From Ureaplasma sp. Hg2 (lineage in GTDB: Bacteria; Bacillota_I; Bacilli_A; Mycoplasmatales; Mycoplasmoidaceae), in contig JAACJW010000001.1 in the NCBI GenBank assembly GCA_021378525.1, forward strand, positions 10,115 through 74,114: a stretch of 64,000 nucleotides of DNA, given 5' to 3'. Shown here piece after piece: positions 24,459 to 58,396 of the stretch. A program made the translations under genes and the position numbers. The notes below the pieces were generated by a model, which worked only from the letters and a program-made list of their open reading frames with translations, did no database searches and was not told where the DNA came from. The stretch's first letter is position 1. Each line of letters begins with the position of its first letter.

Positions 24459-26063
24459 ATGAATAAGCCATTACTTAAATTAACAAATATTAACAAAACT
24501 TTTGATGACGGGTTTACCGCTGTTGAAAATTTTAATTTAGAAATCAAAAAAGGGGAATTTATTACCCTTTTAGGTCCTAGCGGGTGCGGTAAAACAACGA
24601 TGCTAAAAATGATCGGCGGATTCGAATTACCGACACATGGGAAAATTTTATATAATGGAATTGACATAAAAGATATGCCGCCTTTTAACCGACCGACCGC
24701 AACTGTTTTTCAAGATTATGCTCTATTCCCTAATATGACTATTTATCAAAATATTGCCTATGGTTTGAAATTAATGAGAACACCCCTTGATAATATAAAC
24801 AACTCGGTTTATATTGAGGCTGAGAAGGTTCAAAAACAATCTGAAAAAAAAGCAAAAATTAAAATTAAGCAAGTTGAGAAACATTTAAAAAGCTTGTCAA
24901 AAGATATTGCTAAGGAAAAGAAAAGATATAGTATAAACCCCTTTGTAAGCGAAATATATGAAATGAGAAGACCACAATTTTTAGCTACAATAGATCAATA
25001 TAATAACGAATTATATAAGTTATATGGCGAGGATTTTTCTTCAAAAATTAGTTTTCTTGATAACACTTATGATTGAATAAATGGCGCTCTATCACTTTTG
25101 CGGATTCCTTTTCAATTACAAATTGCCTATAATGATTTAAATGAGATTGAAAAGAAAATTGTAAATTTAAAAAAATGATATCGATTTAAAAAACCCATAG
25201 ATGATAAAATCGATAATCTTGAATGAAAATTCAACGATTTAGATTATTGAATTTCGTATTGACAAACTTTCCCCCAAATACGAAAAGATAGTTTTGAAAA
25301 ACATAACATTACTAGAAAATTAACAAAAATCGAAATCAATCAACGTATTTCAGAGGTTTTAGATTTAGTAGGCTTAAAGGGCAAGGAAGATAAATTCCCC
25401 AATCAATTATCTGGCGGAATGCAGCAACGTGTTGCGCTTGCCAGAGCAATAGTTATTGAACCAGAAATATTATTATTAGATGAGCCGTTGAGTGCTCTTG
25501 ATGCCAAAGTAAGAAAACAAATGCAAGCTGAGTTGAAGCGGCTTCACAAGGAATTGGGAATAACGTTTATTTTAGTCACGCATGATCAAGAAGAAGCGTT
25601 AACGCTGTCCGACAAAGTTGTTGTAATGTGTGATGGAGAAATTAAGGATTCCGGAACCCCAAATCAAATTTATGATACACCATCAAATATTTGAGTGGCA
25701 AATTTTATTGGCAAGACAAATATTTTTAAAGGTAAATATTTAGCAAATAAAAAGGTCGCTGCATTAGACATTATATTTAGTACCAAAGAAACTCATGATA
25801 TTAGTGATAATGTTAATGTTTTAATTAGACCTGAAGATTTCGATGTTGTTAGTGTTTCTAAGGGATTTATTAAAGCGACCGTTAAAGAAGTTCTTTATAA
25901 AGGACTTATGTGAGAAATTATTTGTAGTTATAACGACTTGATAATAAATATCGAAAGTGTTAATCAAGTAAAGGCTGGCGATATCGTTGGGCTAATTTGA
26001 GACGACGAAGATGTTCACATTATTCCAGATAAATCTATAGAGGAGGAAATAATAGATGATTAA
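24459..26063 (+). CDS. potA: Spermidine/putrescine ABC transporter ATPase, long form with ~180-aa insertion, 534 aa
   Basis: Walker [10 protein letters not shown], signature LSGGMQQR, Walker [13 protein letters not shown] and H-loop VTHDQ. Three same-frame ORFs. Gap 25077-25418 was hand-translated and holds five TGA. The potB-C-D genes follow. Confidence 0.9.
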
Positions 26064-26928
26064 ACAAAATAAAAAATATACTAATCGTTTTATATGAAAC
26101 AAGCGTTTGTGACTAGTTGTTCCATTTGCTTTGCTAACGCTCATATTAGTAATTATTCCTTTAATTATGGTAATCGTGCAAGCTTTTATACCGGTTTCTG
26201 GTGGCTCTGTTAATGATAATTGAAGTATAGTAACTGGAACCGTTTGAGAAAAAATAGGTAAATCATTATATATATCAATAACTGCAACAATTTTTGCGAT
26301 AATTTTAGCATATCCTTTTTGCTATTTTTTATCTTTTAATAAATCGAAATTATTTAAATCAATTGTTCTATTAACCATAACAGCTCCAATATGAAGTAGT
26401 CTACTAATTAAATTAATTGGATTAAAAACATTCTTTGATGTCATTAATGGCGAAATGAATAGTACATATGGTGATATTTTTACAATTATAGGAATCACTT
26501 ATATGTACGTTCCGTTTATGATTATTCCATTGTATACGACTTTAGAGGCGATGCCGCGTTCGTTAATTGATGCTTCTAAGGATTTAGGGCACAATAGTAT
26601 TAGAACGTTTTTTTATATTGTTGTACCATATACTAAAAACGCGTTATTTTCTGGAATAAGTTTAGTGTTACTTCCGGCCTTTACCTCGGTCGCCATTCCG
26701 GCCTTCTTAAATAATGCGAATAATGGGGACATGATTGGAAACATTATAATTGACCAAGGCCAGAATGGGTTGGAAAGTCGAATCGCGATAGCTCGCGCAT
26801 CCGCTTTAAGTTTATTAGTTAGTCTTGTGATGTTTCTTGTTTACGGGTTGATTGTTTTGTCACCAAAAATGTATCGATCGATAATGCGCTACAAATCACA
26901 AAGGGAAATGGTGAATAAGCATGAGTAA
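26056..26928 (+). CDS. potB: Spermidine/putrescine ABC transporter permease, 290 aa
   Basis: ATG 26056 overlaps the potA stop. Polytopic. EAA-like loop LEAMPRSLIDASKDLG. Hand-translated through several TGA into ORF 26455-26928. Confidence 0.85.
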
Positions 26929-27778
26929 TTTTTTATCATTTTTAAAAAAATCATATATTTATATTATTTTAATTTTAATCTATATTCCCTTAATTTTTAT
27001 TGTTATTTTAAGTTTTACGCAAGCATCTGATAAAGGAAATATTGGCAATTCCTTTGATTTTAATGACGGCCAAAATTATTTGCAATTATTTAGCAACGAT
27101 GATTTTGTTAATGCTTTAGTGAATACGATAATAATTAGTGTGGTCGTAGTTCCAATTTCGACAATCATTGCTGTTCTAACTTGCTTTGGGATATGAAACT
27201 CAAAAAAAGTTTATCAATCTAGTGTATTATCTTCTTCTAGAATTAATATTGTTAATCCGGATGTCATTACTGGAATTAGTTTAGCCTTATTATTTTCTTC
27301 AACATGAATTGCAGTTGGTTTAAACCTAGGCTTTTTCACTGTTATTTTATCACATATTTCTTTTTGTACTCCGTATGCAATTATTGTGATATACCCTAGA
27401 ATGCAAAAAATGAATCGCAACTTAATTTTAGCTTCATATGATTTAGGATACAATAAACTAATAACTTTCTTTAAGGTTACAATTCCTTTTTTGCTACCAG
27501 CTATTATAAGCGGTGCGGCAATTGTTTTTGCAATGAGTTTTGATGACTTTATCATCACCAGTTTAACTAGAGGAAGGGTAACAACAATCTCAACCCAATT
27601 ATATGCGATGCGTAAGGGTATCAAGGCTTGGGCCGTTACTTTTGGAGCAATCATTATTATGATTACATTATTTATAATGGGAATAGTGGCGCTACGTCAT
27701 AGTTATACCGAACGGAAAAACATCAAAGGCAAACGGCAAGCTAAGCTTAAAGTTTGAAATAAGCAAGGTTTGAAATAA
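26921..27778 (+). CDS. potC: Spermidine/putrescine ABC transporter permease, 285 aa
   Basis: Overlaps the potB end. Loop MQKMNRNLILASYDLG. ORFs 26921 and 27386 are in the same frame with the gap checked. TAA at 27776-27778. Confidence 0.85.
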
Positions 27779-29298
27779 TGAAACGAAAAACTGTTATGAC
27801 TTTCATCACAGCATTTAGCGGGTTACTAATAGTAGCCCCTTTGAGTGCTACACTTGTATCATGTTCAAGTGTAGATAAAAATCGTTTGGTTTATGGTAAT
27901 TTTGAAAGTTATATGAATGCTGAGGTTGAAAGATATTTACAAACTAAATACGATGTTACTTTTGATTCTTATGAAACTAATGAACAAATTTTAAGTAATT
28001 TAAAAAACGATTCAATGGATATCGTTACCCCGTCAACGTATATGGATGTATCTTTAATTAAAGAAAACTTAATTCAACCACTTAATTGATCAAAATTTAA
28101 ATTAGGTAATATAAATAATGTAGAGGATTTAATTATTAGTAAAAATCCGATTTTTACTAATTCGACAATTAAAGCTATGAGCGCTTATGGAGATTTAAAT
28201 GGGGATAATATTATCGTTCCTTATGATTCCCTTTTTAATAACAATAACGAGCTAAAGCAAAACGGGCCGTATGATATTATTAAAAACGGAATTAAGACGA
28301 CAATTCCAAATTTAATTGGTAAGGATTCAAAAAAACCCGGCGCATTAGATCTATTTAGCGAAGATAGTTTACTAAATTGAACTGTTCCTTATTTTTTACA
28401 AGATAATATTTTTGCATATAGAGGTCCTGAAATTAAAACCTGAGGAACTAAAAATAAAAGAACGAACGATAAAATCGATTGATTAGATATCTTATATACA
28501 ATGAGCCATGATAGTCGTTTTTACAAAGCTAAGACACCCAATCTAGGAATGGTAGATGACTCTAGAACAATTTATTCGATTCCCCGTTTGATGCAAGATG
28601 AAAATAAAAATGTTAATCCACAATCAGATGCCCCGGGCACGTTCCAAAAGGTGGAAATAAAGGATGTGGAAAATACTTATAAATTATTTGTTGATAATTT
28701 TAGGAATTCTCCTAGTGATATTTTATTGAATTCCGATTCCAGTGTTATTTTAAATAAATTATCACGTGACGAAATTAAGGGTGGAATTATGTATAATGGC
28801 GATGTTGTGTATAGCGTAATCGGCGGTGACGATGGAATTGATATTAAAGCTGATGACATTCATTATGTTCGTCCCGAGAAAACACTCGCTGCTTTAGATA
28901 CAATAGCTTTTAATAAAAATTTGAAAGGTGTAAAATTAGATGCGGCATATAATATTGTGGGAACAGTAATGTTTGATTCAATTGATTCCAATGGAGAAGC
29001 CCTTGATGCTGGAACCACGAATGGGGATGATTATAAATATTGAAGTACTAAAAATTTCGATGCAATCAACTACACACCGGTAACTATAAATATGTATGAT
29101 TTTGCTACATCGCAAGGTTCATATGCTATAAATAAGAAATGAGAAAACGATGCATATTATAGCGATAGTCCAAAAGATAAAATGGAAAAAGATCTTTTAA
29201 AAATTAATGTAGATCCAAACATGTTGGAGCAACCCTTGAACGACATTAGTAAATCCAATATGCAAATAGCATATTACTCATTTAAAAATAACTTGTAA
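27778..29298 (+). CDS. potD: Polyamine-type ABC substrate-binding lipoprotein, 506 aa
   Basis: TAATG overlap with potC. Signal plus lipobox MKRKTVMTFITAFSGLLIVAPLSATLVSCSS. Three same-frame ORFs and a tail joined by TGA; gaps checked. The assignment rests mainly on operon context. Confidence 0.7.
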
Positions 29299-35771: not shown

Positions 35772-36533
35772 ATGAAATTTTTTAAACACCGCGATAGCGA
35801 TAATGTTAGGAACAACAATAGTAACATTAATAAATATGCTTTAGCTACAAATAAATCACCAACAATGCAATATGTGATGAACAAAATTAATAACCGTGAT
35901 CGAATCACACAAACCATCGATTACAAATCATTTTATAATGCATCACCGATGCAACCTCCACAAATGCGAGGCATTGCACCTAATGCTGCATTAGCGGGTT
36001 TACATGTGGTTGAACCGATTGTGGAACCATTCCCTCGTGCAGGGAGATTGGACTACCATGATTCTAAAGTGACACCGCTTCTTTATATGAACGGGCGAGG
36101 TACTAGAGTTAATTTGAGAAGCATTAATGCTTCAATACCTTATGAAACAATTAAATATGGTTTCAACTTTAATGACGTCCGTAAACCTTTGGTATATTCT
36201 GGTAACATTGGATTAAATCATGATTTTAGATCGCTAAACATAAATATTGATAATAGTGATTTAGAACGCTCTAGTCAGCTTCGTAGTTTAAGTTTGGCTA
36301 ATCCTTTGTTCTTGGATCACCGCGCTAATTATCATAATGAGGTTCCGACATTTCATTTAAATGTACCCGAACCAAAATTGCCACGGTTAACCCCCTACAA
36401 TCTTTTTGAGGATTTAAAACACGCTCGAGAATATAATGTTAATTTTCCTAAGCTTCACCGCATAAATGATTTTATGAATGATGACGACCAAGAAATTGTG
36501 CAACACCATGTGCGGCAATATAGTGAATGATAA
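35772..36533 (+). CDS. Hypothetical protein, 253 aa
   Basis: Intact ORF. The terminal codons are GAA TGA TAA, so Trp is the last residue under code 4. No family recognised. Confidence 0.6.
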
Positions 36534-36545
36534 AAAATAATAGAA

Positions 36546-36578
36546 AATGCACTTAATCAATTAAGTACATTTTTTTTA
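36546..36578 (+). terminator. Rho-independent terminator
   Basis: aatgcacttaat..attaagtacatt hairpin plus T7. Confidence 0.65.
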
Positions 36579-37574
36579 CTCATTATATTTATGGATTACT
36601 AAAATAAGCACAATTCCCTTGGCGTATTTTAAATATTTAATGAAAGTTTATAATTAATATATTTTTAATATATTTTTGTTGAAATAAAATTTAAATTTTA
36701 AAAACTTTATGAGTTCGCTTGGCACGCATGATTTATAAAGGTGATATTATTTACATTCATTAATAAATTAAAGTTTAACGAAAATAGCTAATAGGATTTG
36801 AATATTAAATAAGATTAAAAGTAAGTATTTTTGGACGATTATTTAAGTGTTTATTATAAGGGCTTTATACCCGCCTCAATAATTGCAAATTTAAATTACC
36901 TTGTGTTTTTTATATTCATAATTTTTTATTTGAACTATAACTATCGTGTTAGTTACGATATTTTTCTTATTTCTTAAGGAAAGTGAAACCAAAATTTTAT
37001 GATTGTTTTTAATAACAATGAAAATATATAGGAAGAACTCGGGACATACTTGTGGATTTTTTAATTAGATAATGACTGATATAAAATCTCTTATATAAAA
37101 CCGGGTTTTAACCATCCTATAATTGGGGTACTTCATTTTTTTATCTTTCTATTACATTAAAAATCAAGTGAAATAATGCTTATTTAATTATATGCAAATT
37201 ATTTTTCCATTTTTACTTATTACGTTAAATATATTTTAATGGATTGAGATTACAACGAAATATACAAGCATCAACGAGATGTTACGGTGCCTTCTTTGTG
37301 ATAAACGTTAGAGTGCGAAGCCTCAATTAAAATGTTGATTGCATTTCAACTTAACCAATAATCAGTGTAACTTTATTACTAAAGTTACTTAGCAAATTAT
37401 TTTAGTACTTACTATCTCACTTAATTATTCGCAACCGGTTGCAACTATAATTGAATCGATATTTTAATATACGGCGTATCAAAAAATATCTTTTAAAATT
37501 ATTTTTTGATACTAATTTTTGAACTAAAAAACTTTTATATAGTTAGCATTTAATTCCTTAAATGAAAATTTCTA

Positions 37575-37871
37575 ATGGGAGATCTTGAAGTGCGACTATT
37601 TAAAAAACAAGTATATACCTTTTGATGAATATTTATGATTCCATTAATTTGAATATATGGAATTTATGAGTCGTGCATTATTCTAAATTCACAATTGCAA
37701 AGGGCAATTAAATCTAGAAAAATACTATTTATTACTTACAATATCATACATATATGGAAACAAATTAAAGTTGAATTAATATTTGAAATCATTTATATAT
37801 TTTGCATCACCATTGATTTGGTGATACCTATAAAATTAAACATTAAAAATGTGACTTATTATTACTATTAA
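37575..37871 (+). CDS. Possible small hydrophobic protein (two predicted TM helices), 98 aa
   Basis: This is the only long TAA/TAG-free stretch I found on the + strand when scanning all three frames of 36541-37575 and reading on to 37871. MGDLEVRLFKKQVYTFWWIFMIPLIWIYGIYESCIIL...ELIFEIIYIFCITIDLVIPIK. Three in-frame TGA. No convincing RBS. Confidence 0.35.
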
Positions 37872-38274
37872 AATGATTTTTTAAATATATTTTTTCGGAT
37901 TTATTAAGTTTCATCAGAAAGAGCCAATTTAAATAATTGGCTTAGAATTTAATTTTCTATGAATTATAAAACCAATAAAACACGGATAATATTGCATAAA
38001 TTAGTAGTTTTACTTATTTTTCATTAATATCACAAATTAATAATTAATTATATAAATACCAATATATTCGCTATTTTATATCACTTTAACAAGCTCTTTA
38101 AAAATATTTCATTATTTTTGGTATAAATTCTTTTTAGGTATTCCATCCTTTGTTATAATTATTATGTAATATATATTAATTTATGCAATTTAGTTAATCG
38201 TTGTAAACGGTTCAGATTTCATTGTTTGAATTTAATTGTAATTTACTCTTACAGAATTAATTGAGGACATAAAA

Positions 38275-41200
38275 ATGGCAAAATACGATGATATAGTTAA
38301 CCGGGATTTTAGTAAAGAAATAAAAGCTCCATCAACAGTTGAATTAACTAAAAATGTTGATAATTTTGGCGTTACATTAAAACTTAAGGAAGACGTTCTT
38401 TTGAATTTAACAAAAACGCCAGAAGGGAAAATGTACGTTGATCAAGACAAAAGTAGTTTTTGGGGAATAAATCCAATGTATAGCTTTGGAGAAACGGCTC
38501 CTGAAAACAATGTCGATAAAATCAACGTTATTAAACATTACGATTCTAGAGAAGACCTTCGCACCTTAAATTTGCTACGTGCGCAAGCAAACAAAATTAT
38601 CAACGAAGCAAAAGCTGAGTACAAGAAAAAATCTTTACACGCCAAATTGTTAAGTGAAAAAAGCATTACTTTCGCTGAGGTTAAAGCTAGCCATTTATTG
38701 TCTAAAGCAAAAGGGATTGAAATAACTTATGTTGATCGTCAAAACGAGGAAGTGCGCAAACAAGAAGCTTTGCTTTTAATCGATGATTGAAAAACTAAGG
38801 CTGTTGAAAATAATTCTACACGTTTAGAATATTTAACTCAAAGAGAAGAACGTTCACATGAAAAATTAAAAGGCCACGAAATGAACAATAGAGCTATCGC
38901 AGAAGAGAGATTGCACGAACGTGAAATCTTTGCCCAAATTCATTTAGAATGAGAAAAGGAAAAGGCCGCTACATTGGCCCAAGGAATGCATTTTAATGTT
39001 CCACCTCCAGTTCGTAGAAAATTTTTAGGAACCAGAAACAATTACCAAGATGAATTAAAATATTCTACAATAAATGAACGCAAAGAAGACCGGGTAATCA
39101 ACTTATTAAATAACAAAGAAGATATTAATGGGGTAGACTTTATTGAGTCAACCAAACGTGGAAATGCACTAAATAAATTTACTAAGTTTACTAAAGATCC
39201 AAAAACACATGCATTAGAAAATAGAATTGAAACTACAACTGAACGCAATCTACATGTTTATATTGTTGATGAAGATGTGTATGAAAGCCAACTTAGAAAA
39301 AATAATTATATAGATGCGAAGAAAGAACGCTTTGAAATTATGGTCGATGCTCGTATGTATGCCCCATTCAAGGAATATCTTCATGTTGAATGAAATGATG
39401 AAAATGGCAACGATGAAATCAAATATCAAAATCAAAAAAAATTAGCTAAGGTACGTAGTGATTCGGATGATGTGCAACGTTATTACTTGGACAAAGAGGC
39501 TAGAGAACAAGCCTTACGTAGTCGTAATGAAAACGCGGTCGAAAGAGAACCATCATATTATTCTGTAGAAGATTGATCAGATAATGATTATATTAATGGC
39601 CAATCGCAAGATGGCGCGCTTAAGCGTTGATTTAAATCGAGAAAAGACCGAACCCGTGAACAGGAATTGGATTTTGAAAAAACTGATTTTAATGAAACAA
39701 TCGATAATAGTAACGACATATATTTAAATGATGAAAACGAAATAAACGAATTAAAATTATATTTAGCTAAAAATCAAAATTACATTGACCTTTATGATGG
39801 GCAACTTTTTGACCGAAATCGTTTAGTCAATGACGAACATTATGTTTCTATCGATTATATTATTCCATTAGAATTAAGTGGCGATGATTCAATTAGCAAC
39901 AAGATTTTAACTAAATCCGAACTTCATTATAGCAAAGGTGATTTAACGCCGTTTGAATGAATGGATGATGAAAATTTTGATTTATTTTATGAAGAAGTAA
40001 CAAAATTGTTAAAAAATAGAGGACGAGAAAATAAGAAACGTTTAAGAAACCTTACTTTTATAAATAACGTGAAACAAGAAAGTTATATTAATGATAACGA
40101 TGAAGACTTCCAAGGGTATGAACAATATGACGACGAAGAATATTATCGTGAAAGTTCTCGTGATCAATATAAAATACAAAAAGCCAATGTTCTTTTAAGA
40201 AAACTTCCTATTCATCCGATTATTCATGATGAACCATCAAAATTATTGCAAAGTGGAATCCGAACAACGGATGCCATTAGAGCTTTCCAACGTTTGAATG
40301 CTGATGAAATTTATTATGACAAAGAAAAACAAATAATTTTAAATAAATTAAAATATGTTTGCGATGAAAATAGAAGACAGGAAAATTCTTTTAGACACAA
40401 TCAAGAAAAATCTAAACAATTAGATGACTATGTTAAGGTTAAGGCTGATGAGCTAAAAGCAAATTTTGTTTCAAGTAAAACTAGACTATCGACCAAGAAT
40501 TTCAATAAGGATCAAAAAATAGATGAACGCTATCGTAATATTTCTGAAACCTTATTTGAAAAATTCTCTATCGAACGTCAAATGATTGATGAAAAGGAAG
40601 AAAACCTTCATAATCGTGAGGAAGCACTTGAAATTCGGAATGAAGCGATAACTAAAGAAAGAGTTTTGAGTCATTTAGAAAAAGTTAACACACGAGAAAT
40701 TAAAACACTTCACCGTTTGAAAACTAAATTAGAGCAATATAATCGTAAATATGATTTTGATATTCCAGTAGATGATTTTCCTTTTGTGAACACTTTATCG
40801 CAAGCCGGTGGTGAAAAATATTTAAACCTAAAAAAAATAAATGATAAATTAGTGCTACAATGAATTTCTGAAGAAACTAAATATCGTGAAAACGATGAAG
40901 ACGAAGAAATTGATATTAAAGCAGATAGCGCAGTTTCTTTAATGGGAAAGGCTTCGAAAATTATTGACACCTTTAAAGTAGGGACAGTAGATAATAAAGT
41001 TGAAATCATTAACGATTCTTTACCTAGTGATGTTACTAAAATAGTGATTCTAGAAAAATATAGACATAAGGATGAAATTGAACAAATCGAATATTTAAGA
41101 ACCTTAGCTAGATCAATGGTTTCAGAAGTCGCAGACGTTGCACTTTTGCAGGAAGCTAGAATTGTCGAGGAAGCTCATATTGTTTTGGAAGAAGAACTTG

Positions 41201-42321
41201 AAGAAGCAAAAAAATATTTAGACAAATGTGAAGTCATTGAGAAAATGATTGACCGTCGCAAAAGTTTCTATGACAAAAGTTTGAAAGAGGCTTGAAACGA
41301 TAAACGTGATAAAGAACGTGAATGGAATCGAATTGTTAAGTCTGAAAAAATTGAAAATGCGCGACGTACAAATGCATTGAGAAAACAAGCTCAAGCTGAT
41401 TTACGAGCACAACTTCATGATTCTTTAGGAGAAGATGGGTTGAATCATAAACTTCCTATTAATATGCAAAACGAATTTAAACATTCACCAGAAGCTATTA
41501 AAATTAATCAAAGACGAATTCGTATGTTGGAACAAGATTTAAATATGCCAATTTTACGCGAGAGTGAACAAGATAAAAAACGTAAACGGATCCAAGGATT
41601 TGAAACACCTACTACAACAAGTCAAAAAGTGGGCAAATACTTCGGAATGATGAAGGAAAAGTTCATTGAAGCGTCCGCTGATGCAGAACCTAATATTGAC
41701 GAATTAATTGGAACAAAGGAAAAATTAAGATTAACTTCACAAGAAGAAACAAATGTTAATCAAAACATTAAAGATGTTGAATATTCAGAAATGACTAATT
41801 CCTTTGAGGGCCATCCTATTCCCACGACAACATTAATTAATAATGAATACAAAAACCAGGTTATAAATAATAGTCAATATGAATCTGATGAAAACCAAAG
41901 TGAAATCGAAAATGATGTTTTTGTTCCAACACCTATTATGGTGGGAGCTAGCGAAGATAACCCTATTGATGTGCAATTTAGTGCGCCTAGAGAGGCTTTT
42001 ACATCAGATATTAATTTGACGTCCCAAATTGAACCCGACGTTGTTGTTGATCCATTAACGATTCCAGCATCTGGCGATTATAACAGTGGCGCTGAAACTC
42101 CGATTGAACAATTATTAACAAATTGAGAAAAAGAAGCTGATGAAATTTCTAAATCATTAGACGACTTGAGTAATGATTGGGATAACGGCGTTAAGCAAAA
42201 GAAAGTTGTGCAAGCGAAACATGACCAAACCCAGAAGATGAATGATGTAGATTTTAAAAGTAAAACCATGGATGAATTAGAGGAAGAAGAACTAATTGAT
42301 AAAAGTATTTTAAATCACTAG
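38275..42321 (+). CDS. Giant highly charged protein with central Cas9-type HNH-like module (His->Tyr), 1,348 aa
   Basis: Six track ORFs (38275, 38974, 39667, 39961, 40942, 41377) are all in frame 1. All gaps were hand-translated. Nine in-frame TGA and no TAA or TAG until TAG 42319-42321. GAGGA RBS before ATG 38275. The HNH-like segment is at 39751-40059. Confidence 0.85.
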
Positions 42322-49363: not shown

Positions 49364-49619
49364 AGAATCAAAATAATTTATAACGGTCCTAAAAATTTAA
49401 ACACAAACATTAACCCTATGAATTAAGGTTATTGTGAAAGTTTAAATTTTTTTTATTACATTTTTTTAAGATAAATAAAACAAAAATGTATGTTATATTT
49501 CGAGTTTTAAATATTTTTCCTATGTTTAACTCTTTTATAGTTTATAATATACGAATAACGAAACATATACATATAATCTATATGGGAGTTAAAATTTCAC
49601 ATTTGCATCGGGGTCGATT

Positions 49620-52600
49620 ATGGGTAGAATTTTATTAGAATTACGAACAATTTATAAGACATATGAACTTGAAAATAAAGAAGTAAAAGTCTTAAATAAT
49701 ATTAATTTGGATGTTGAAGAACACATTTCTTTAGCTATTTTAGGAAATATAGACAGTGGTAAAACATCGTTGATTAAAATAATGGCTCGATTTTTCGAAC
49801 CAACTTTTGGTGAGGTAGAATTGTTTCCAATCAATAAAGTTCAACCAGAACTTACAAATAGTATTTTTCATGAAACGTCACCAATTGAGATAAACCGACA
49901 TAAGTTAGCACCAGAAACAACTGTTGATGAGATGATAAAGCTTATTGACGAATCAAGAAAATTTCCTGCTGAAAAAAAGGAAATGGCAAAACTTATAGAA
50001 GTCAGTGGTATCCCAGCAATCGGAACTAAAACATTAGAAGAATTAGAAGGCTCGGATTACAAAAAAGTTAAATTAATTTCAATTTTGGCTAACAAAGCAC
50101 CAATTGCTTTTTTAGATGATGTAGGAAGTGCTTTTAAATATAGCGAAAAAATCAAATTTAACATTGAAATGGGCGAATATATTAGAAAACATAAAATGAC
50201 TATAATCATGACAGCAAATGATCCCGAAGAGGTTGTTGATTTATGTGATGAATTTATAATCCTAGGAAAAGGAAAAATTGCAGCATTCGGTGACGTAGAA
50301 GTCCCTGAAGGCTTCGAGGATTTTTCAGAGTGCGTTAGTAAATGAGTTGAAGTTGGAAAAGTTGAAAGTCACGACAATGTGATCACATGATTCAAAAATT
50401 TATTTAATTCAAACAAGAAAATACTTGAAGAACGTCGTTTACGTGATGCAGCTAAAAATCAATTATTACTACCCGGTGGAGAACCGATGGAAGTTCCAGA
50501 TGCAATGGTGATTGAAACTGCTGAATTCGAAGATGATGAAGCAACATATGAAAAACCGGAACATAAATCTTTCCTTAGCCGTAAACGCGCTAAACAAGAA
50601 GAGTATGAAGATGAAGAAGACGAAGAAGACGATTCTCAAAATACCGGAATAGAGACAAACAATAAAGAACGCCGTAGCCAAATGGATATCATGAAAAAAA
50701 TGGAGGCTTTCGAAGTAGAGGAAAACGATACAAAAGGCCATGATGCCTTCAGCAAGAGAGCAAAAGAAATCGAACAAACCGATGATGAAGCTGGCAAAAG
50801 AAAAGAACGTGCTGCAAGATTAGCCCGAATCCAAGCAATCGAAGGAAAAAATGCTCCCCAAACAAATAATGATTCTAGCGGCGAAACCCCTGAACAAAGA
50901 CTAGCAAAACGAAAAGAATTATTAGAACGCATGAAATCCAAAGAAAATAATCCAAGTGTTACTGATACAGAAGCTTATGAATCAGAAACCCCGGCACAAA
51001 GACTAGCAAAACGAAAAGAAATGTTAGAACGTATTAAGGCCAAAGAAAAAGGCGTGGAAGTTTCTAGTGGAACCGATGCAGATTCAGGTCCAGAAACACC
51101 AGAACAAAGACTAGCAAAACGAAGAGAAATGTTAGAACGCATTAAAGCAAAAAAAGAAGGCAGAACTTTAGTTTCTGATAACGAAGCGGATGATTCAGTT
51201 TCAGCTAATGAATTGCATTCAGTTGATGAAACAGATTCAGCGATAGCAAACTTTGATTCAGAAACACCAGAACAAAGACTAGCAAAACGAAAAGAAATGT
51301 TAGAGCGTATGAAAGCCAAGGAAAAAGAAGGGGATACCCCTCCTGAAGTTGAAACTCAAACAAGTGAGAGTGAAGCTCCAATGATAGAAGAAACCGAAAT
51401 TGGTGATAAGAAGAATTTATCTCCATCAGAACAAAGACTAGCAAAACGAAGAGAAATGTTGGAACGCATTAAAGAAAAGCAAGCCAACATGAAAATTGAA
51501 GAAGTTGAAACTTCTAAAAAACATGTAGTTTTAAGTGCTGCTGCTGCTGAGCGTAAAAGTAAGTTAGAAGCTATTAAAGCACAACAATCTAAAAAATCAA
51601 CAATTCAAATAAAACTTGAAAAAGCCAAAGCTAGAAAAGAAGCAGAAACTTTAGCTGAAACTAATGCAGCTAAGGAAAAAGCGACTTTTGTTGCTGCAAA
51701 AGCGGAAGCCATTCTAGAAAGTGAAAAAACTAAGGAATCTTTAGCAAATGTTCATGAAGTTAAAACAGTTGAACTTAAAACTAATAATCAAGTTGATTCT
51801 TCTACAAGCGAACGAGCAGAAAGATTGGCTCGAATCCAAGCAAAAGAAGGATCTTTGGCTCCGCAAACTTCAGTTAAATTCGAAAAACCAGTTTCAACAA
51901 CACCGTCAACGCCAACACTTAAATCAAGTGCATCAATTGAACGTGCTGAAAAATTAGCACGCATTAAAGCCAAACAACAATCTATTGCAAAAGTAAAAGC
52001 TTCTAATGAAGAAACAAAACCAATTGCTACACCTACTTTAACTACTTCTACTCCAGTTGCACCAAAACCAGTTATAGATAAACCAGCTGCACCAAAAACA
52101 ATTATAGCTAAACCAATTATAGCTAACCCAGTTGCACCAAAACCAGTTCCAGTTGCACCAAAACCAATTATAACTAAACCAGTTGCACCAAAACCAATTA
52201 TAGCTAAACCAGTTGCACCAAAACCAGTTATAGATAAACCAGTTACACCGACTATAACTACACCAACTACGCCCACTGTTAATAAAACAGCACTTGCTGA
52301 GCGAGCGGAAAGATTGGCTAGAATTCAAGCTAAAGAAAATGCGGTACCAAAAAGCGAAACTGTAATTAAAGATGTTGAAATAACTAAAATTACAAAAACA
52401 GTACCACCTAAAAATATCGAAGTCAAACAACCCACTCCAGCATACAACTCGGACGCAAAAGCGGCAGCTCGAAAAGCAATGCTAGATCGTGTTAAAGCAC
52501 AACAAAATGTTGATGTCAAAAATGATGTTAAATCACAAAATGCAATGGCAATGATTGAACGCATTAAGGCAAGAGAAGGAAAACTTGAAATCGATAAAAC

Positions 52601-54713
52601 CACCGAACCTCGTAAGCCTCTTTCGATAGAAAGACAAAAACAAAACATCGAACGTATTGCAGCAATGGGTAAACGGAATAGTGATTTTAACGAAATAGAT
52701 CATATCAAAATCGAACGTGAACGTGAAAACCGTTTAACAAAAGCAGAAAACGAAGTTGAAGAAATAATTAAATCATCAAGTGTTCAAAGAGTGAATGCAA
52801 GCGCAACACAAGCGCAACACGCTGAGCAATTAAGAATTCAAATGCAAGAATTAGAGCAATTAAAAAGAAAACAACTTGAGATAGCTAAACAAAAATCTGA
52901 AATTCAAAGATTAGCACAAGAAGCTGAAATGGCAAAATTGCGTCAAATAAATAATAGCAAACTTCGAAAAGCCGAAATAACTAATGAAAAAGTATTATTA
53001 GACCAAGAAGAGTTAGCGCGTAATTTAAATCTTAGAGCTCAGGAAATTGAAGATAGAGCAAGAGTCGAATTGAATCGAATTGAAAAGGAACATGCAAATA
53101 AAATTGCTGTTTTACAAAATCGTTTAGACGAAGAAGAACGTCTTCGCAAAATAAAGGATCAAGATGCTCAATTAACACTAGATTCAGCGATAAAACAAGC
53201 CGAACTTGTTGCCACAAGAATCGCAACAGAAAAATCTGTTGAAGAAAAAAGTACGAGAGAAACCCAATTAGCTAATCAAATATTAGAAATAGAAAAAATT
53301 GTTAAACAAATGGAAATTTCATCAGGGGCTAAAAACGAAGAACTAATGCAAAATGCGATAGAAATGAAATATAAAGTTTTACATCAACAAGAATTAGCTT
53401 CTAGAGCTGCTAAAGATGTGGAAATTGCGAATCAAAAATTAGCAAAACAAGAAAAAGTTGCACAAGATTTGCGTGACCAGGCTGAACGCACTAGAAGATA
53501 CAAGATGCAAGTGGAACACCAAAATAACATAAATTATAAAAACACCAATGTTAGCGGTTTAAATGAAATTAAATTACAAAAAAATAGAATCGAAAGAATG
53601 TCTGGCGATATTCAAGAGATTAAAAATTTAATTAGAGAAAGTATTGCAAGCGGAGACGCTCAAGCAATGCATCGTTTAAATTCTTTGGTTACAGATTCTG
53701 GGTCAGGAAGAAATCTAAATCCCTCTCAAATTGTAGTGGGGCGTAACCCCGGCGCATCACCACGTCCTGGGATTAATTATAATTTAAAACCAGCTTCGCA
53801 ATTTACACCAGGTGCGCAAGCTACTAAAGTAGTTGGCACAAACGGAGTTGTGATGTCCAATGTAGTGCAAACATCTCCTAATTACAAAGCGCCAGCAAAT
53901 CAATTGATGGTACGAGGCGGAGTTAGTAGTAGAGAATATTTGATGGGAATAGATAAGCAAATTTGAGAATCAGAGCAACGATTAACCGAATTGAGAATGT
54001 TAAAACATCACGAAGCCGAAGTTGTAATTCAAAGAAAAATTGAAGCTGAACGTCAAAAAATGCAAGCAGATAGATTACATCTTGAAGAACAAGAAATGAT
54101 TAACGAAAGAAAATATCTTCATGACCAACAAAATGCTTATTTACAAAATAAAGCAGCATCACGTTATTATGATCAAAGTGTTTCTAATGCTTCATATTAT
54201 CCAAAACGTAAACCAATGCAATATACAGCTGGCGAAAGGGAAGCGATTCAATCTAACAAATCTGGAGATATTAACGCATATGAATATGGTCGACAAATAA
54301 AGCAAACCACACCATATAGAGCAACGCCCGTGAATCAACAAGCACCTTATTCTCAACAACGTGTTAGTCAATCTGCGCAACGTTTAAGTCAAGCGTTCCG
54401 CGAAGCTAATAGACCATTTGATTATGAAGATGGTCCTTACCAACAACAAAGGGCGAATAATAATTATAATCAATACCCTAATGGGGAGCGAGACTATGTC
54501 GAACTAAGTCACAACGAAGTTAATAATTTACAATCTGATTCATTTTATTCTAACCAAAATGCGCCCTATAATTATAGACCTGAAGCACCTTCTTATAGAA
54601 ATGCATTCTTGCAAGATAATAGACAGCCTAACAATGCTGATCGGAACGGAAATCCACAAAATCAAAGCAACAACAGATTGCCAAATGGATATTTAGGAAA
54701 GAAAAAATATTAG
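49620..54713 (+). CDS. Giant fusion of a degenerate ABC-type ATPase domain, a repeat/coiled-coil region, a Pro/Lys block and a Q/N/Y-rich tail, 1,697 aa
   Basis: ORFs 49620, 50487 and 53991 are all in frame 0, and the gaps hold only TGA (hand-checked). Walker A is GNIDSGKTS (49743-49769). Walker B-like IAFLDD (50103-50120) is followed by VG, not E. Confidence 0.85.
50800..52675 (+). repeat. About a dozen dispersed copies of an amphipathic ~17-20-aa motif (TPEQRLAKRKEMLERIKAKE / ERAERLARIQAKE)
   Basis: Five copies are near-identical at the DNA level (~55 nt each, starting near 50883, 50985, 51093, 51261 and 51424). The others have diverged (e.g. near 51810, 51935, 52290, 52460, 52545 and 52625). 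Confidence 0.85.
52053..52250 (+). repeat. Pro/Lys-rich short-period repeat block (KPVAPKP[IV]I[AT/D] x ~8)
   Basis: PVAPKPVIDKPAAPKTIIAKPIIANPVAPKPVPVAPKPIITKPVAPKPIIAKPVAPKPVIDKPVTP, with repeated ccaaaacca units. Confidence 0.9.
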
Positions 54714-54845: not shown

Positions 54846-56357
54846 ATGCAAAATACAGCTTATGATACCATTTCAAAATACAAAAATATAGTTGAACAGA
54901 ATATTGTTGACGGACTATTTGATTACTTTGGTCGTATCTATTATAAAATCGATCCCAATAATAAAGCTGGGGAAGTTAAAAACGAATATTTAACCACGCG
55001 CTACATGGATGAAGCTTCACGACGCGAACGAAGATGGAAACAGGACTCTATTTGATGTGCCATATTCTTAATCTTATTTGCGGTAGCTTTTGTATGTGTA
55101 TGGTTTTTTGTTGGGAACTTACCCAACGACTTTAAAAACTATGAAAACTATATTTATATCCCAAGTTGATTATTGGTCGCGTTGCTATTATTTATCGGAG
55201 TACTTTTATTGATATCTACAATTATTAATTTTAGCAAGTCGTTTATGATGATGCGATATTCAAAGGATCAACTAAAAAATTGAAATAATTCTTTTTATTA
55301 TTTTACAAAAAGAATTGAAAATCAAGGAATTAAAGATGCTATTGAATATGGTATGTCAGATTTAATTTTAGATAAACATACAGCAAGTTATGACCGAACT
55401 ATTTACGGATTACATAATCGATTATATACTTACGCTGACATTCCAAAGGATGCGCGAAGAACTAAGTATCACAATTTAACTTCTGGAGTTTACAAAAATA
55501 ACCCTTTTACAATTTCTTATAGTGAATGAGAATGATTTCGTGAAGGGCGTGAAATTAACGAAGATGTTGATGCAGCTTATCACACAATTAATGTTAATTT
55601 GAAGAGACGTTTACATCGTTTTGAAGATTCAATGATTATTTTATCTATGGATATTGATGCAAACCCGAATTTAAATTTTATTTTAAATAACTTTAATGGT
55701 AAAAATATAAAATTACAAAACAATGTTTTTAACTCATTATTCAATCTAGTTGTTAACGATCAAAATTTAGCTTATAAAGTATTTACACCATACGTACAAC
55801 ATACTTATTCGCGGTTGAAAACTTGATCACCTGTTTCAAAAATGATTAGACAAGTTATTAAAGAAGGTAATAAATTATATGTTATTATCGATGGGTTTAA
55901 TGATTTCTTTAAATTCAACAAAATTACTGATCCCGAACTTAATATTATGTTTAATACATCTGAACGTTTAAGTTTATCAGAAATTAAAGTGGGTTCCTTA
56001 GATGAAACTGCTTCATTAATGACCGAATACATTTTAGAAGAAACTGATTTATTGTACACAATTCTTGAACTTGGGGCATCATTACCAGCAGATCCGGAAA
56101 TTCTAGTTCTAAAACAAAAAATTAAAGCGGAATATATGAGTCGCCGTCCAAAAAATAATTTGTTTGATATTATAGCTAATCGTAGATCTCGAGGAGTAGG
56201 TTCGGAAGCGATGGATTTAATGAGCAATGATTTTCAAAGAAATCGAGTCTCAAATGAAACTCCATTATGGAATGCGCAACAGGCACCTTTATTTAGACCT
56301 TTGACAACAACTTCTGCAAAAATAAATGATTCACCAATTGGTGGGATTAAATATTAA
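54846..56357 (+). CDS. Two-TM membrane protein, DUF3137-like, 503 aa
   Basis: ACGGAGG RBS. ORFs 54846, 55599 and 55842 are in the same frame. Gap 55056-55598 was hand-translated and holds only TGA. There are two TM helices after ~70 aa. NIKLQNNVFNSLFNLVVNDQNLAYKVFTPYVQHTYSRLK resembles the DUF3137 core as I recall it. Confidence 0.65.
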
Positions 56358-56582: not shown

Positions 56583-57104
56583 ATGACTAGTAAACTATTT
56601 AACGAACCCAAATATAGTATTGGAATTATTGTTATCTCAATAGCACTACAATTTTGTTTTGCTATTGCGATTATTTTAAACCATGAAATTGCCCAATATT
56701 TGATTTATGGTGCCATGGTGCCGTTGGGTATTATAGATTTATTATCTATAGTTATTCTTAGTTATATTGTTTATATTGATCGTAAAAAAATAGATATTAT
56801 TGAAATTTTTATAATAGTATTGGGGCATATTTTTTTAGCTTTATGTTTTGCTCAAATCATTATTAACTACACCCAACCCTTCAAAGACGAACAAACGTCA
56901 AATATTACAGGTTTAACATCTGCTGCATTATGAATGATGTTGTTATTGATAGGAATCATGGGCGTTTATAGTTTTATATGTTTTTATAAAAATTTAAATA
57001 TTTTAAAAAGTAATATTAAGATTTCTGTTCTTATTGACGATGAAGATAAAAAGGAAGCCGCTAAAAAACGTGCGTTAAAAGCTGAAAAAAATAGAAAGAA
57101 ATAA
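56583..57104 (+). CDS. Small polytopic membrane protein with basic tail, 173 aa
   Basis: ACGGAG RBS. ORF 56583-56933 extends through one TGA to TAA 57102-57104. Has 4-5 hydrophobic segments. Confidence 0.6.
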
Positions 57105-58225: not shown

Positions 58226-58396
58226 ATGGCAAGAGGAGTATCAGTAGATGGCGACTTAGAATATGCATTAAAAAAGTTTAAAAGAATTTCTAACGAAACT
58301 AAGAAAGACACTAAGCGTCATGAATATTATTTAAGACCAGGTCTTCGTAAAAAAGAAAAAATTAAAGAAGCTCGAAAAAAACACGCTAAATTTTAA
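58226..58396 (+). CDS. rpsU: 30S ribosomal protein S21, 56 aa
   Basis: Hand-found ORF MARGVSVDGDLEYALKKFKRISNETKKDTKRHEYYLRPGLRKKEKIKEARKKHAKF. GAGGGTG RBS. Confidence 0.9.
   Translation: MARGVSVDGDLEYALKKFKRISNETKKDTKRHEYYLRPGLRKKEKIKEARKKHAKF

Follow-up and report, generated by a model that had tools for sequence, protein, structure and literature searches.

The window analyzed here, a 64,000-nt stretch of the Ureaplasma sp. Hg2 genome (assembly GCA_021378525.1, contig JAACJW010000001.1, positions 10,115 to 74,114, forward strand), carries one very large gene whose 1,697-aa predicted product joins a complete but degenerate ATP-binding cassette (ABC) nucleotide-binding domain (NBD) to a tail of ~1,450 residues built of repeats and predicted helices. 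A complete NBD heading such a tail was found neither described nor in the databases that we searched; the architecture is new, and its parts, a degenerate ABC NBD and a giant repeat/helix protein in the Mollicute style, are known. Its sole ortholog (P0122, 1,527 aa) lies in the metagenome-assembled genome "Ureaplasma sp. Hg1" (GCA_021378535.1, contig JAACJV010000002.1). Tentatively, and as the likeliest of the roles that we considered, we propose for this giant protein a lineage-specific structural or scaffold function, with a pseudo-ATPase as its head, in the cytoplasm of a wall-less Ureaplasma-like bacterium. The evidence comes from open reading frame (ORF) calls, profile searches, alignment to the ortholog, substitution rates, and predicted secondary structure.

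A single gene read through three TGA codons

The window has a G+C content of ~30% and uses genetic code 4, in which TGA is read as Trp. ORFs of at least 150 codons that stop only at TAA or TAG (table 4) add up to ~66 kb over the six frames, compared with 32 kb for table-11 ORFs, and TGA greatly outnumbers TGG within the table-4 ORFs of the window. Under this code the giant-protein gene runs from an ATG at 49620 to a TAG at 54711-54713, and its product has a computed mass of ~192 kDa and an isoelectric point of ~8.5 (Table 1). Three in-frame TGAs account for all three Trp residues of the product; the initial annotation, made from the sequence before this analysis, had recognized a fusion in a single 1,697-aa frame and counted two TGAs, missing the one at 50388-50390. 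All three Trp codons are also TGA at the homologous positions in Hg1, where they lie in the near-invariant contexts WVEVGKVE, TWFKN, and QIWESEQ, and public records list the giant protein (P0121, NCBI) and its ortholog as one product each, of 1,697 and 1,527 aa.

Read with the standard bacterial code, the frame would break at each of the three TGAs, and it could be argued that the gene is an artifact, in which a misread TGA has fused two or three separate genes or a pseudogene, or else an assembly chimera. We consider this exceedingly improbable, because TGA is a sense codon across the whole window, the ortholog shares all three TGAs, set in nearly invariant sequence, the two proteins are collinear across ~1,600 residues, and the ratio of nonsynonymous to synonymous substitution rates (dN/dS) is below 1 on either side of every TGA. 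For these reasons, 49620-54713 is one real gene and a single ORF, as the initial annotation had it, and we rejected separate ORFs, a pseudogene, and a chimera. Separate translation of the parts through TGA stops, or an assembly error, which the initial annotation had named as what would overturn it, is ruled out in the same way, since the ortholog shares both the TGAs and the gene order.

An antisense ORF of 853 codons without TAA or TAG (50975-53533, minus strand) overlaps the gene and contains 16 TGAs. G+C reaches its maximum for the window here, and the sense strand is very purine-rich (AT skew of 0.33); we rejected the antisense ORF as a gene and regard it as a by-product of the purine-rich sense strand.

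Table 1. Features of the giant-protein gene and its flanks (window coordinates; residue numbers refer to the 1,697-aa product)
Feature	Residues	Coordinates	Strand	Evidence and remarks
Promoter-like hexamer pair in upstream gap		49566..49595	+	9/12 matches; weak, site count not above shuffled expectation
Whole gene	1-1697	49620..54713	+	1,697 codons + TAG; ORF call under code 4
ABC nucleotide-binding domain	1-241	49620..50342	+	Pfam/NCBIfam/PDB profiles; 68% identity to ortholog, dN/dS 0.21
Walker A/P-loop GNIDSGKTS	42-50	49743..49769	+	Alignments; intact GxxxxGK[ST], G42-NIDS-G47-K48-T49
Signature position, LEGSD for LSGGQ	142-146	50043..50057	+	Alignments; ortholog LSHSN
Walker B IAFLDD	162-167	50103..50120	+	Alignments; Asp166 kept, Asp167 at catalytic-Glu position
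H-loop position TAND	198-201	50211..50222	+	Alignments; Asn200 for His, kept in ortholog
Post-NBD segment	242-290	50343..50489	+	Alignment + AlphaFold; 86% identity, dN/dS 0.03
TGA read as Trp242	242	50343..50345	+	Frame scan + ortholog alignment
TGA read as Trp257	257	50388..50390	+	Frame scan + ortholog alignment
Acidic linker	291-392	50490..50795	+	Composition + AlphaFold; 34% D+E, net -20, mostly predicted disordered
13-copy charged helical motif array	393-1020	50796..52679	+	Motif search + AlphaFold
Pro/Lys block	~812-877 within 796-890	52052..52249	+	Tandem 15/30-nt repeat; composition
Long-helix region	1027-1358	52698..53693	+	AlphaFold + alignment; 71% identity to ortholog, dN/dS 0.16
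G/N/P/V-rich block	1361-1444	53700..53951	+	Composition + alignment; modeled as coil
E/Q/R/L-rich segment	1445-1505	53952..54134	+	Composition + alignment; probably helical
TGA read as Trp1449	1449	53964..53966	+	Frame scan + ortholog alignment
Q/N/Y-rich region	1506-1697	54135..54710	+	Composition; last 192 residues 26% Q+N, 11% Y
Terminator-like hairpin + T-run, 38 nt past stop codon		54751..54763	+	Weak evidence

A transporter-type ABC domain with degenerate catalytic motifs

The Pfam family ABC_tran (PF00005) matched residues 25-167 with E = 2.2e-9 and a score of 38.5 bits, above the cut-off of 25, and NCBIfam ABC-ATPase models covered residues 5-227 with E values of 1e-16 to 1e-13, all far below the equivalog cut-offs. 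The NCBIfam models included the PotA-like MMSYN1_0197, SaoA, the energy-coupling factor (ECF) ATPases, and ProV, and the PDB NBDs that matched, with E values down to 1e-13, were those of OpuCA, P-glycoprotein, CmpD, EcfA2, LolD, and MJ0796. On the strength of these profile searches, which support the ABC-like head of the initial annotation, we consider that the head is a true but diverged transporter-type ABC NBD, outside every named subfamily. We rejected the head as a recent paralogue of either the PotA gene or the C39-peptidase ABC gene of the window (BLAST E values of 1e-4 and 0.17, respectively). The former belongs to a PotABCD-like operon (24459-29298, plus strand), and its 534-aa PotA has canonical motifs and a helical insertion of ~200 residues between the Q-loop and the signature motif.

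In the alignments, all NBD motifs of the giant protein are confined to residues 15-201. The A-loop Tyr is kept (Y15, invariant in the alignment), and the Walker A, LEGSD, and TAND motifs that the initial annotation had named were confirmed (Table 1). The same annotation had read Walker B as having lost its catalytic Glu to Val-Gly. IAFLDD aligns with ILLDE, and the Glu is indeed lost, but its replacement is Asp167, present in both orthologs, and the Val-Gly comes after it. The degeneracy also extends to two loops additional to those motifs: the Q-loop Gln is lost (H84 or N92, depending on the alignment; the ortholog has Ala at the N92 position), and the D-loop, just after Walker B, reads SAFK for SALD and has lost its Asp.

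Conservation within the head is uneven. The P-loop neighborhood (residues 35-56) and the stretch HKMT..MTANDPE are almost invariant between the orthologs, and the signature region is poorly conserved, with only ~5/13 positions identical. From this unevenness we infer that nucleotide holding, or the P-loop fold, has been under selection and that the ATP-sandwich dimer and hydrolysis have not. The head would then bind nucleotide without useful hydrolysis, and the predicted lack of hydrolysis follows from the combined loss of the Q-loop Gln, the His, the signature, and the D-loop and not from Walker B alone.

Genomic context and localization

In both genomes, the giant-protein gene has a DUF2779 protein gene upstream and the gene of a DUF3137 protein with two transmembrane (TM) segments downstream. 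No permease gene adjoins it in Hg2 or Hg1, in agreement with the initial annotation, and no partner NBD gene does so either. A 256-nt gap lies upstream of the gene; together with the terminator-like hairpin, this gap suggests that the gene may be monocistronic. No TM segment, signal peptide, or lipobox is present in the 1,697-aa protein, in which the best 19-residue Kyte-Doolittle mean is 1.16; because of this low hydropathy, and because the N-terminus is the NBD itself, the protein is probably cytoplasmic.

The downstream DUF3137 match is a 503-aa protein (54846-56357, plus strand) that also matches the MAG1210/MSC_0882 family weakly and shares 90% identity with its Hg1 counterpart. Next comes a protein of 173 aa (56583-57104, plus strand) with several TM segments and a K-rich tail, and neither of these membrane proteins is an ABC permease.

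The main rival to a scaffold is a non-catalytic subunit or tether of an ABC or ECF transporter encoded elsewhere in the genome, in which the head would pair with a canonical NBD or with the coupling helices of a permease, and the tail would link the transporter to other components or regulate it. That the head is most like transporter NBDs, in the PotA, SaoA, EcfA, and ProV models as in the P-glycoprotein, OpuCA, CmpD, and EcfA2 structures, and unlike SMC or OLD-type ATPases counts in favor of this explanation. Pairs in which one of the two NBDs is degenerate are familiar from heterodimers such as TAP1/TAP2 (PMC5441636), and the gene of a Mollicute-like protein with NBDs and an acidic/basic tail (P0127, taken up again below) adjoins an ABC2_membrane gene. 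Here, however, the Walker B/H-loop/Q-loop face and the signature/D-loop face are both degenerate, so both composite sites of any dimer would be impaired. The lack of an adjacent permease or partner NBD in either genome, a gene that looks monocistronic (weakly), and a head that is no recent copy of either NBD of the window add to the case against it, and we regard a transporter role as unlikely, though it deserves serious consideration.

Anatomy of the tail

Secondary structure in the tail was taken from a single-sequence AlphaFold model of residues 258-1448, of which only the secondary structure was used; the mean pLDDT (AlphaFold's per-residue confidence) was 48, and values of ~70-88 were reached in the long helices. 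The succession given in the initial annotation, from acidic linker through motifs, Pro/Lys block, and helices to a Q/N/Y-rich end, was borne out (Table 1). Ahead of the linker, residues 242-290 form the best-conserved part of the protein, with two of the three Trp residues and a predicted helix at 259-279.

The motif array has the consensus A-x-R-K-x-M-L-E-R-I-K-A-K-E. Its copies are ~15-20 residues long, every one of them was modeled as an isolated helix, and they are spaced by S/T/D/E/P-rich linkers of 24-120 residues. The ortholog likewise has 13 copies, five of which lie in a 105-nt tandem array with 91% identity, which points to recent amplification. Where the initial annotation had described about a dozen basic amphipathic motifs, the number stands (13 copies), but the helices are highly charged (net charge of +1 to +3) with only a narrow Leu/Met/Leu/Ile stripe and are not amphipathic helices of the classical membrane type. 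Since their mean hydrophobicity is negative, we rejected membrane-binding amphipathic helices, and it is more likely that these look like protein- or nucleic-acid-binding helices than like membrane anchors.

This leads to a second rival, in which the giant protein would be nucleic-acid or ribosome associated: the 13 Arg/Lys-rich helices would bind DNA or RNA multivalently and the head would sense nucleotide state, making the protein a nucleoid organizer or a translation-linked factor. ABC-type ATPases act on DNA and on ribosomes in other families (SMC and ABC-F), the motif helices are positively charged and too polar for membranes, and residues 728-1020 are net positive, at +8, +9, and +11 per segment. 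On the other side, the motif region is charge balanced overall (residues 393-660 have a net charge of +1) with acidic linkers interleaved, no known DNA- or RNA-binding family was matched in Pfam, NCBIfam, or PDB-sequence searches, and the head, as a single and unsplit NBD, is neither ABC-F nor SMC-like. We consider a nucleic-acid role improbable.

The Pro/Lys block consists of (V/I)APKP(V/I)I-type units without predicted secondary structure; at this place the ortholog carries a T/H/P repeat that is unrelated to it. Between Hg2 and Hg1 the motif core is kept, and the number of repeats and the sequence of the linkers turn over.

Helices were predicted at residues 1027-1117, 1129-1231, and 1239-1344 (90-105 residues each), followed by a short one at 1347-1358. 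The initial annotation had described ~450 heptad-like residues here; ~320 residues were recovered as three long predicted helices, but their heptad regularity is weak. Their hydrophobic fraction of 0.23-0.27 is near the 2/7 expected where helices pack and greatly exceeds the value for single alpha-helix domains, and a single alpha-helix (ER/K) domain was rejected for this reason. Further along, the core of the G/N/P/V-rich block, NYNLKP.SQ.TPGAQATKVVG.NGVVMSNVV, is near-invariant, and residues 1506-1604 of the Q/N/Y-rich region are 75% identical to the ortholog. A Foldseek search with the tail model gave no match, and searches with the motif profile, the post-NBD segment, and a C-terminal profile found nothing significant among PDB sequences.

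Conservation and distribution

The two proteins are collinear over ~1,600 residues with 64% identity in a global alignment (57% by tblastn), and the gene order at the Hg1 locus is that of the window. The shared order runs from the HNH-domain giant protein through two Fe-ADH-like genes, rpsT, DUF5385, fmt, and DUF2779 to the giant NBD protein, and then through the DUF3137 membrane protein, the 173-aa membrane protein, a nicotinate phosphoribosyltransferase-like gene, and rpsU to the C39-peptidase ABC exporter. The giant-protein gene is under purifying selection in all well-aligned segments: between Hg2 and Hg1 (Nei-Gojobori), dN/dS was 0.21 in the head, 0.03 in residues 242-290, and 0.16-0.34 in most tail segments, with the highest value, 0.63, reached only in the A/K/E stretch of residues 661-727. 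These values cover well-aligned segments only, and the last ~93 residues of the 1,697-aa protein are absent from the ortholog. The giant protein evolves faster than most of its neighbors, at 57-64% identity compared with 72-91% for most of them (60-100% overall).

Rapid change of this kind is also what would be expected of a repeat antigen, secreted or at the surface, such as Mollicutes commonly have, with repeats that change for host interaction or immune evasion and an NBD that is a relic. Repeats do turn over fast, from the 15/30-nt Pro/Lys array of the window to the T/H/P array and the 105-nt array (91% identity) of Hg1, and the gene is among the fastest evolving in its neighborhood. The protein, however, is without signal peptide, lipobox, or TM segment and begins with a folded, cytoplasmic-type NBD, and the strong purifying selection on the head and, above all, on the post-NBD segment is unlike that on a relic; we think a surface antigen very improbable.

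The NBD-plus-tail fusion is known from two genomes, Hg2 and Hg1, of one Ureaplasma-like clade. An exhaustive HMMER search with residues 1-241 against 1.84 billion cluster representatives recovered P0122 at E = 3.6e-97 and no other match better than 9e-24, the latter being ordinary, mostly tandem, ABC proteins. A word-indexed search with the head in a database of 5.8 billion proteins returned generic ABC NBDs only, at no more than 30% identity, and a tail search of a large protein database returned P0121 and P0122 only. The species-representative genome scan added the Hg1 locus only, the metagenome scan found generic ABC genes only, and a search of the literature for either genome or for this architecture found nothing relevant. 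With its one unnamed ortholog set aside, no characterized or annotated relative with this architecture was found, which agrees with the initial annotation.

Ribosomal protein S21, encoded at 58226-58396 (plus strand) in the window, is 100% identical in Ureaplasma sp. Hg1 and in three short metagenome contigs (ENA ERZ27277078, ENA ERZ23500490, and JGI 3300030028). Around rpsU these contigs are 84-86% identical to the window, from which it follows that further members of the clade exist in other public samples; all three stop short of the giant-protein gene.

Proposed role

Mollicutes have no cell wall and few conventional cytoskeletal systems, and their shape, polarity, and division depend on giant proteins particular to each lineage. 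ABC-derived pseudo-enzymes are, to our knowledge, rare outside transporter heterodimers. As a cytoplasmic scaffold, the giant protein would combine a pseudo-enzyme head, derived from an ABC ATPase of the transporter type, with a tail that would give reach and valency. The head has kept the elements that hold nucleotide (Tyr15, Lys48-Thr49 of Walker A, and Asp166 of Walker B) and lost those of the sandwich dimer and of hydrolysis (the Gln of the Q-loop, LSGGQ, the Asp of the D-loop, the catalytic Glu, and the His of the H-loop); most likely, it would bind ATP or ADP, or its NBD surface would serve as a docking module, without useful turnover of ATP. Displayed on flexible spacers after the acidic linker, the 13 short charged helices could provide multivalent binding, either to an unknown partner or to the protein's own helices, with the Pro/Lys block acting as a stiff spacer. 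The ~320 residues of long helices may pack against each other or between molecules and so lead to oligomerization, and the Q/N/Y-rich end would favor self-association. Both oligomerization and the scaffold role are inferred from this anatomy.

Several observations weigh against a scaffold of this kind. Replacement of the catalytic Glu by Asp is not in itself enough to stop hydrolysis: TAP1 has a natural Asp at its catalytic-base position, and the NBD of rat TAP1 assembles in vitro into homodimers that hydrolyze ATP (PMC5441636). Modeling of segments with AlphaFold, as the initial annotation had suggested, did yield the three long helices of the tail (at low confidence), but the single-sequence model of residues 1-241 had a mean pLDDT of 32, and ATP binding is argued from the motifs only. 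Heptad regularity in the long helices is weak, which makes them no more than a candidate coiled coil: a 3.5-residue periodicity is significant only globally, in residues 1201-1300 (z = 3.3; residues 1021-1300 gave z = 2.4), just 2/30 local 35-residue windows in the three helices reach p <= 0.05, and one stretch passes a crude register score. The 13 motifs are without a known partner in Pfam and PDB-sequence profile searches. The fast evolution of the protein is compatible, too, with an accessory role under looser constraint, and conservation across only two genomes cannot tell a scaffold from other roles.

A bolder version is that the giant protein forms the core of an undescribed intracellular organizing structure in a clade of wall-less bacteria, in which a catalytically silent ABC domain controls how a multivalent scaffold or condensate assembles. 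To do so, this domain would either sense whether ATP or ADP is bound or attach itself to a membrane complex, and the scaffold would be made of the 13 displayed helices, the long packed helices, and the prion-like Q/N/Y end. We consider it rather unlikely, less so than a nucleic-acid role and more so than a transporter subunit. If it were true, the ABC fold would have a new use, that of a regulatory head on a cytoskeletal element; and if the protein were a true scaffold element, it would represent a new way of coupling nucleotide state to a scaffold. The practical weight is limited: only two Ureaplasma-like genomes, uncultured or little studied, are known to carry the gene.

Other features of the window

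No tRNA and no Rfam RNA was found in the window. A 1,348-aa ORF at 38275-42321 (plus strand), 74% identical to its Hg1 counterpart, matches positions 529-673 of the 1,070 positions of NCBIfam cas_Csn1 with residues ~456-606 (E = 1.4e-20, below the cut-off) and Pfam HNH_4 with residues 505-560. It has no RuvC or REC match and no PADLOC match, neither cas1 nor cas2 lies near it, and no CRISPR-like repeats occur in 36400-38400. The rest of the protein outside the HNH module is highly charged and helical, and the whole looks like a Cas9-type HNH module within a giant protein that is not Cas9. Just upstream of this gene, ~1.7 kb (36534-38274) is nearly without ORFs, holding only one of 98 codons (37575-37871), and has no Rfam match and no notable repeats.

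Comparison with known systems

Transporter-type NBDs (PF00005; PotA, EcfA1/EcfA2, ProV/OpuCA, LolD, and MJ0796) have the same domain and motif order over ~225 residues, and the giant protein shares with them the Tyr of the A-loop, Walker A, and the Asp of Walker B. In contrast to these NBDs, it has other residues in place of the Q-loop Gln, LSGGQ, the catalytic Glu, the Asp of the D-loop, and the His of the H-loop, there is no adjacent permease, a ~1,450-residue tail follows, and its identity to any other NBD is no more than ~30%. Judged as a member of the ABC superfamily, it passes the PF00005 threshold and has Walker A and the A-loop aromatic residue, with most catalytic motifs missing; judged as an ABC transport system, it has neither a TM segment nor an adjacent or fused permease.

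TAP1 resembles the head in its Asp for the catalytic Glu, its non-His H-loop, and its retained P-loop (PMC5441636). TAP1, however, sits in a transporter heterodimer that has one consensus site by way of its partner, whereas both faces are degenerate here, with no partner or membrane domain present. ABC-F and ABC-E proteins were rejected, since they have two tandem canonical NBDs and Pfam and NCBIfam find a single one here, and no PADLOC family of defense ATPases (Gabija, Septu, PARIS, Lamassu, OLD, and others) matched at E <= 0.01.

The initial annotation had been reminded of SMC/Rad50/MukB-type proteins, and an ABC-class ATPase domain together with hundreds of residues of long helices is indeed common to these, to RecN, and to the giant protein. 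In SMC, Rad50, MukB, and RecN, an antiparallel coiled coil, bearing a hinge or zinc hook, connects N- and C-terminal half-heads, and these proteins have a functional signature. Here, by contrast, the NBD is contiguous and N-terminal, with all of its motifs in residues 1-241, and the C-terminus is Q/N/Y-rich. Membership was therefore rejected: the head is unsplit, there is no C-terminal half-head, and Pfam finds no SMC_N match.

In overall style, by composition only, the giant protein is like the terminal-organelle proteins of Mycoplasma pneumoniae. HMW1, HMW2, P200, P65, and TopJ are giant cytoplasmic proteins with acidic/Pro-rich low complexity, coiled coils, and aromatic/Asn/Gln-rich repeats, and in TopJ an N-terminal J domain is joined to the acidic/Pro-rich low-complexity regions. 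No homology to them was detected, and no Pfam family besides ABC_tran was found in the giant protein at E <= 1. The HMW1/P200/TopJ class is marked by an EAGR box along with a domain both acidic and Pro-rich; the giant protein has an acidic (291-392) and a Pro-rich (796-890) region, apart from each other. We know of no ABC domain in any of these five proteins and of no terminal organelle in this organism.

Similar in layout are two Mollicute-like proteins, P0127 (1,241 aa; locus L005, 5001-8726) and P0269 (945 aa), in which an acidic stretch separates two canonical NBDs from a K/A/E-rich basic helical tail; the P0127 gene adjoins another NBD gene and an ABC2-type permease gene. They share with the giant protein the succession of NBD, acidic stretch, and charged tail, and the head is 26% identical to the first NBD of P0127. 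Unlike the head, their NBDs are canonical (LSGGQ, LDE, and SHD or SHN H-loops), and their tails are without significant similarity to that of the giant protein, so that P0127 and P0269 represent a separate, also undescribed, NBD-plus-charged-tail architecture.

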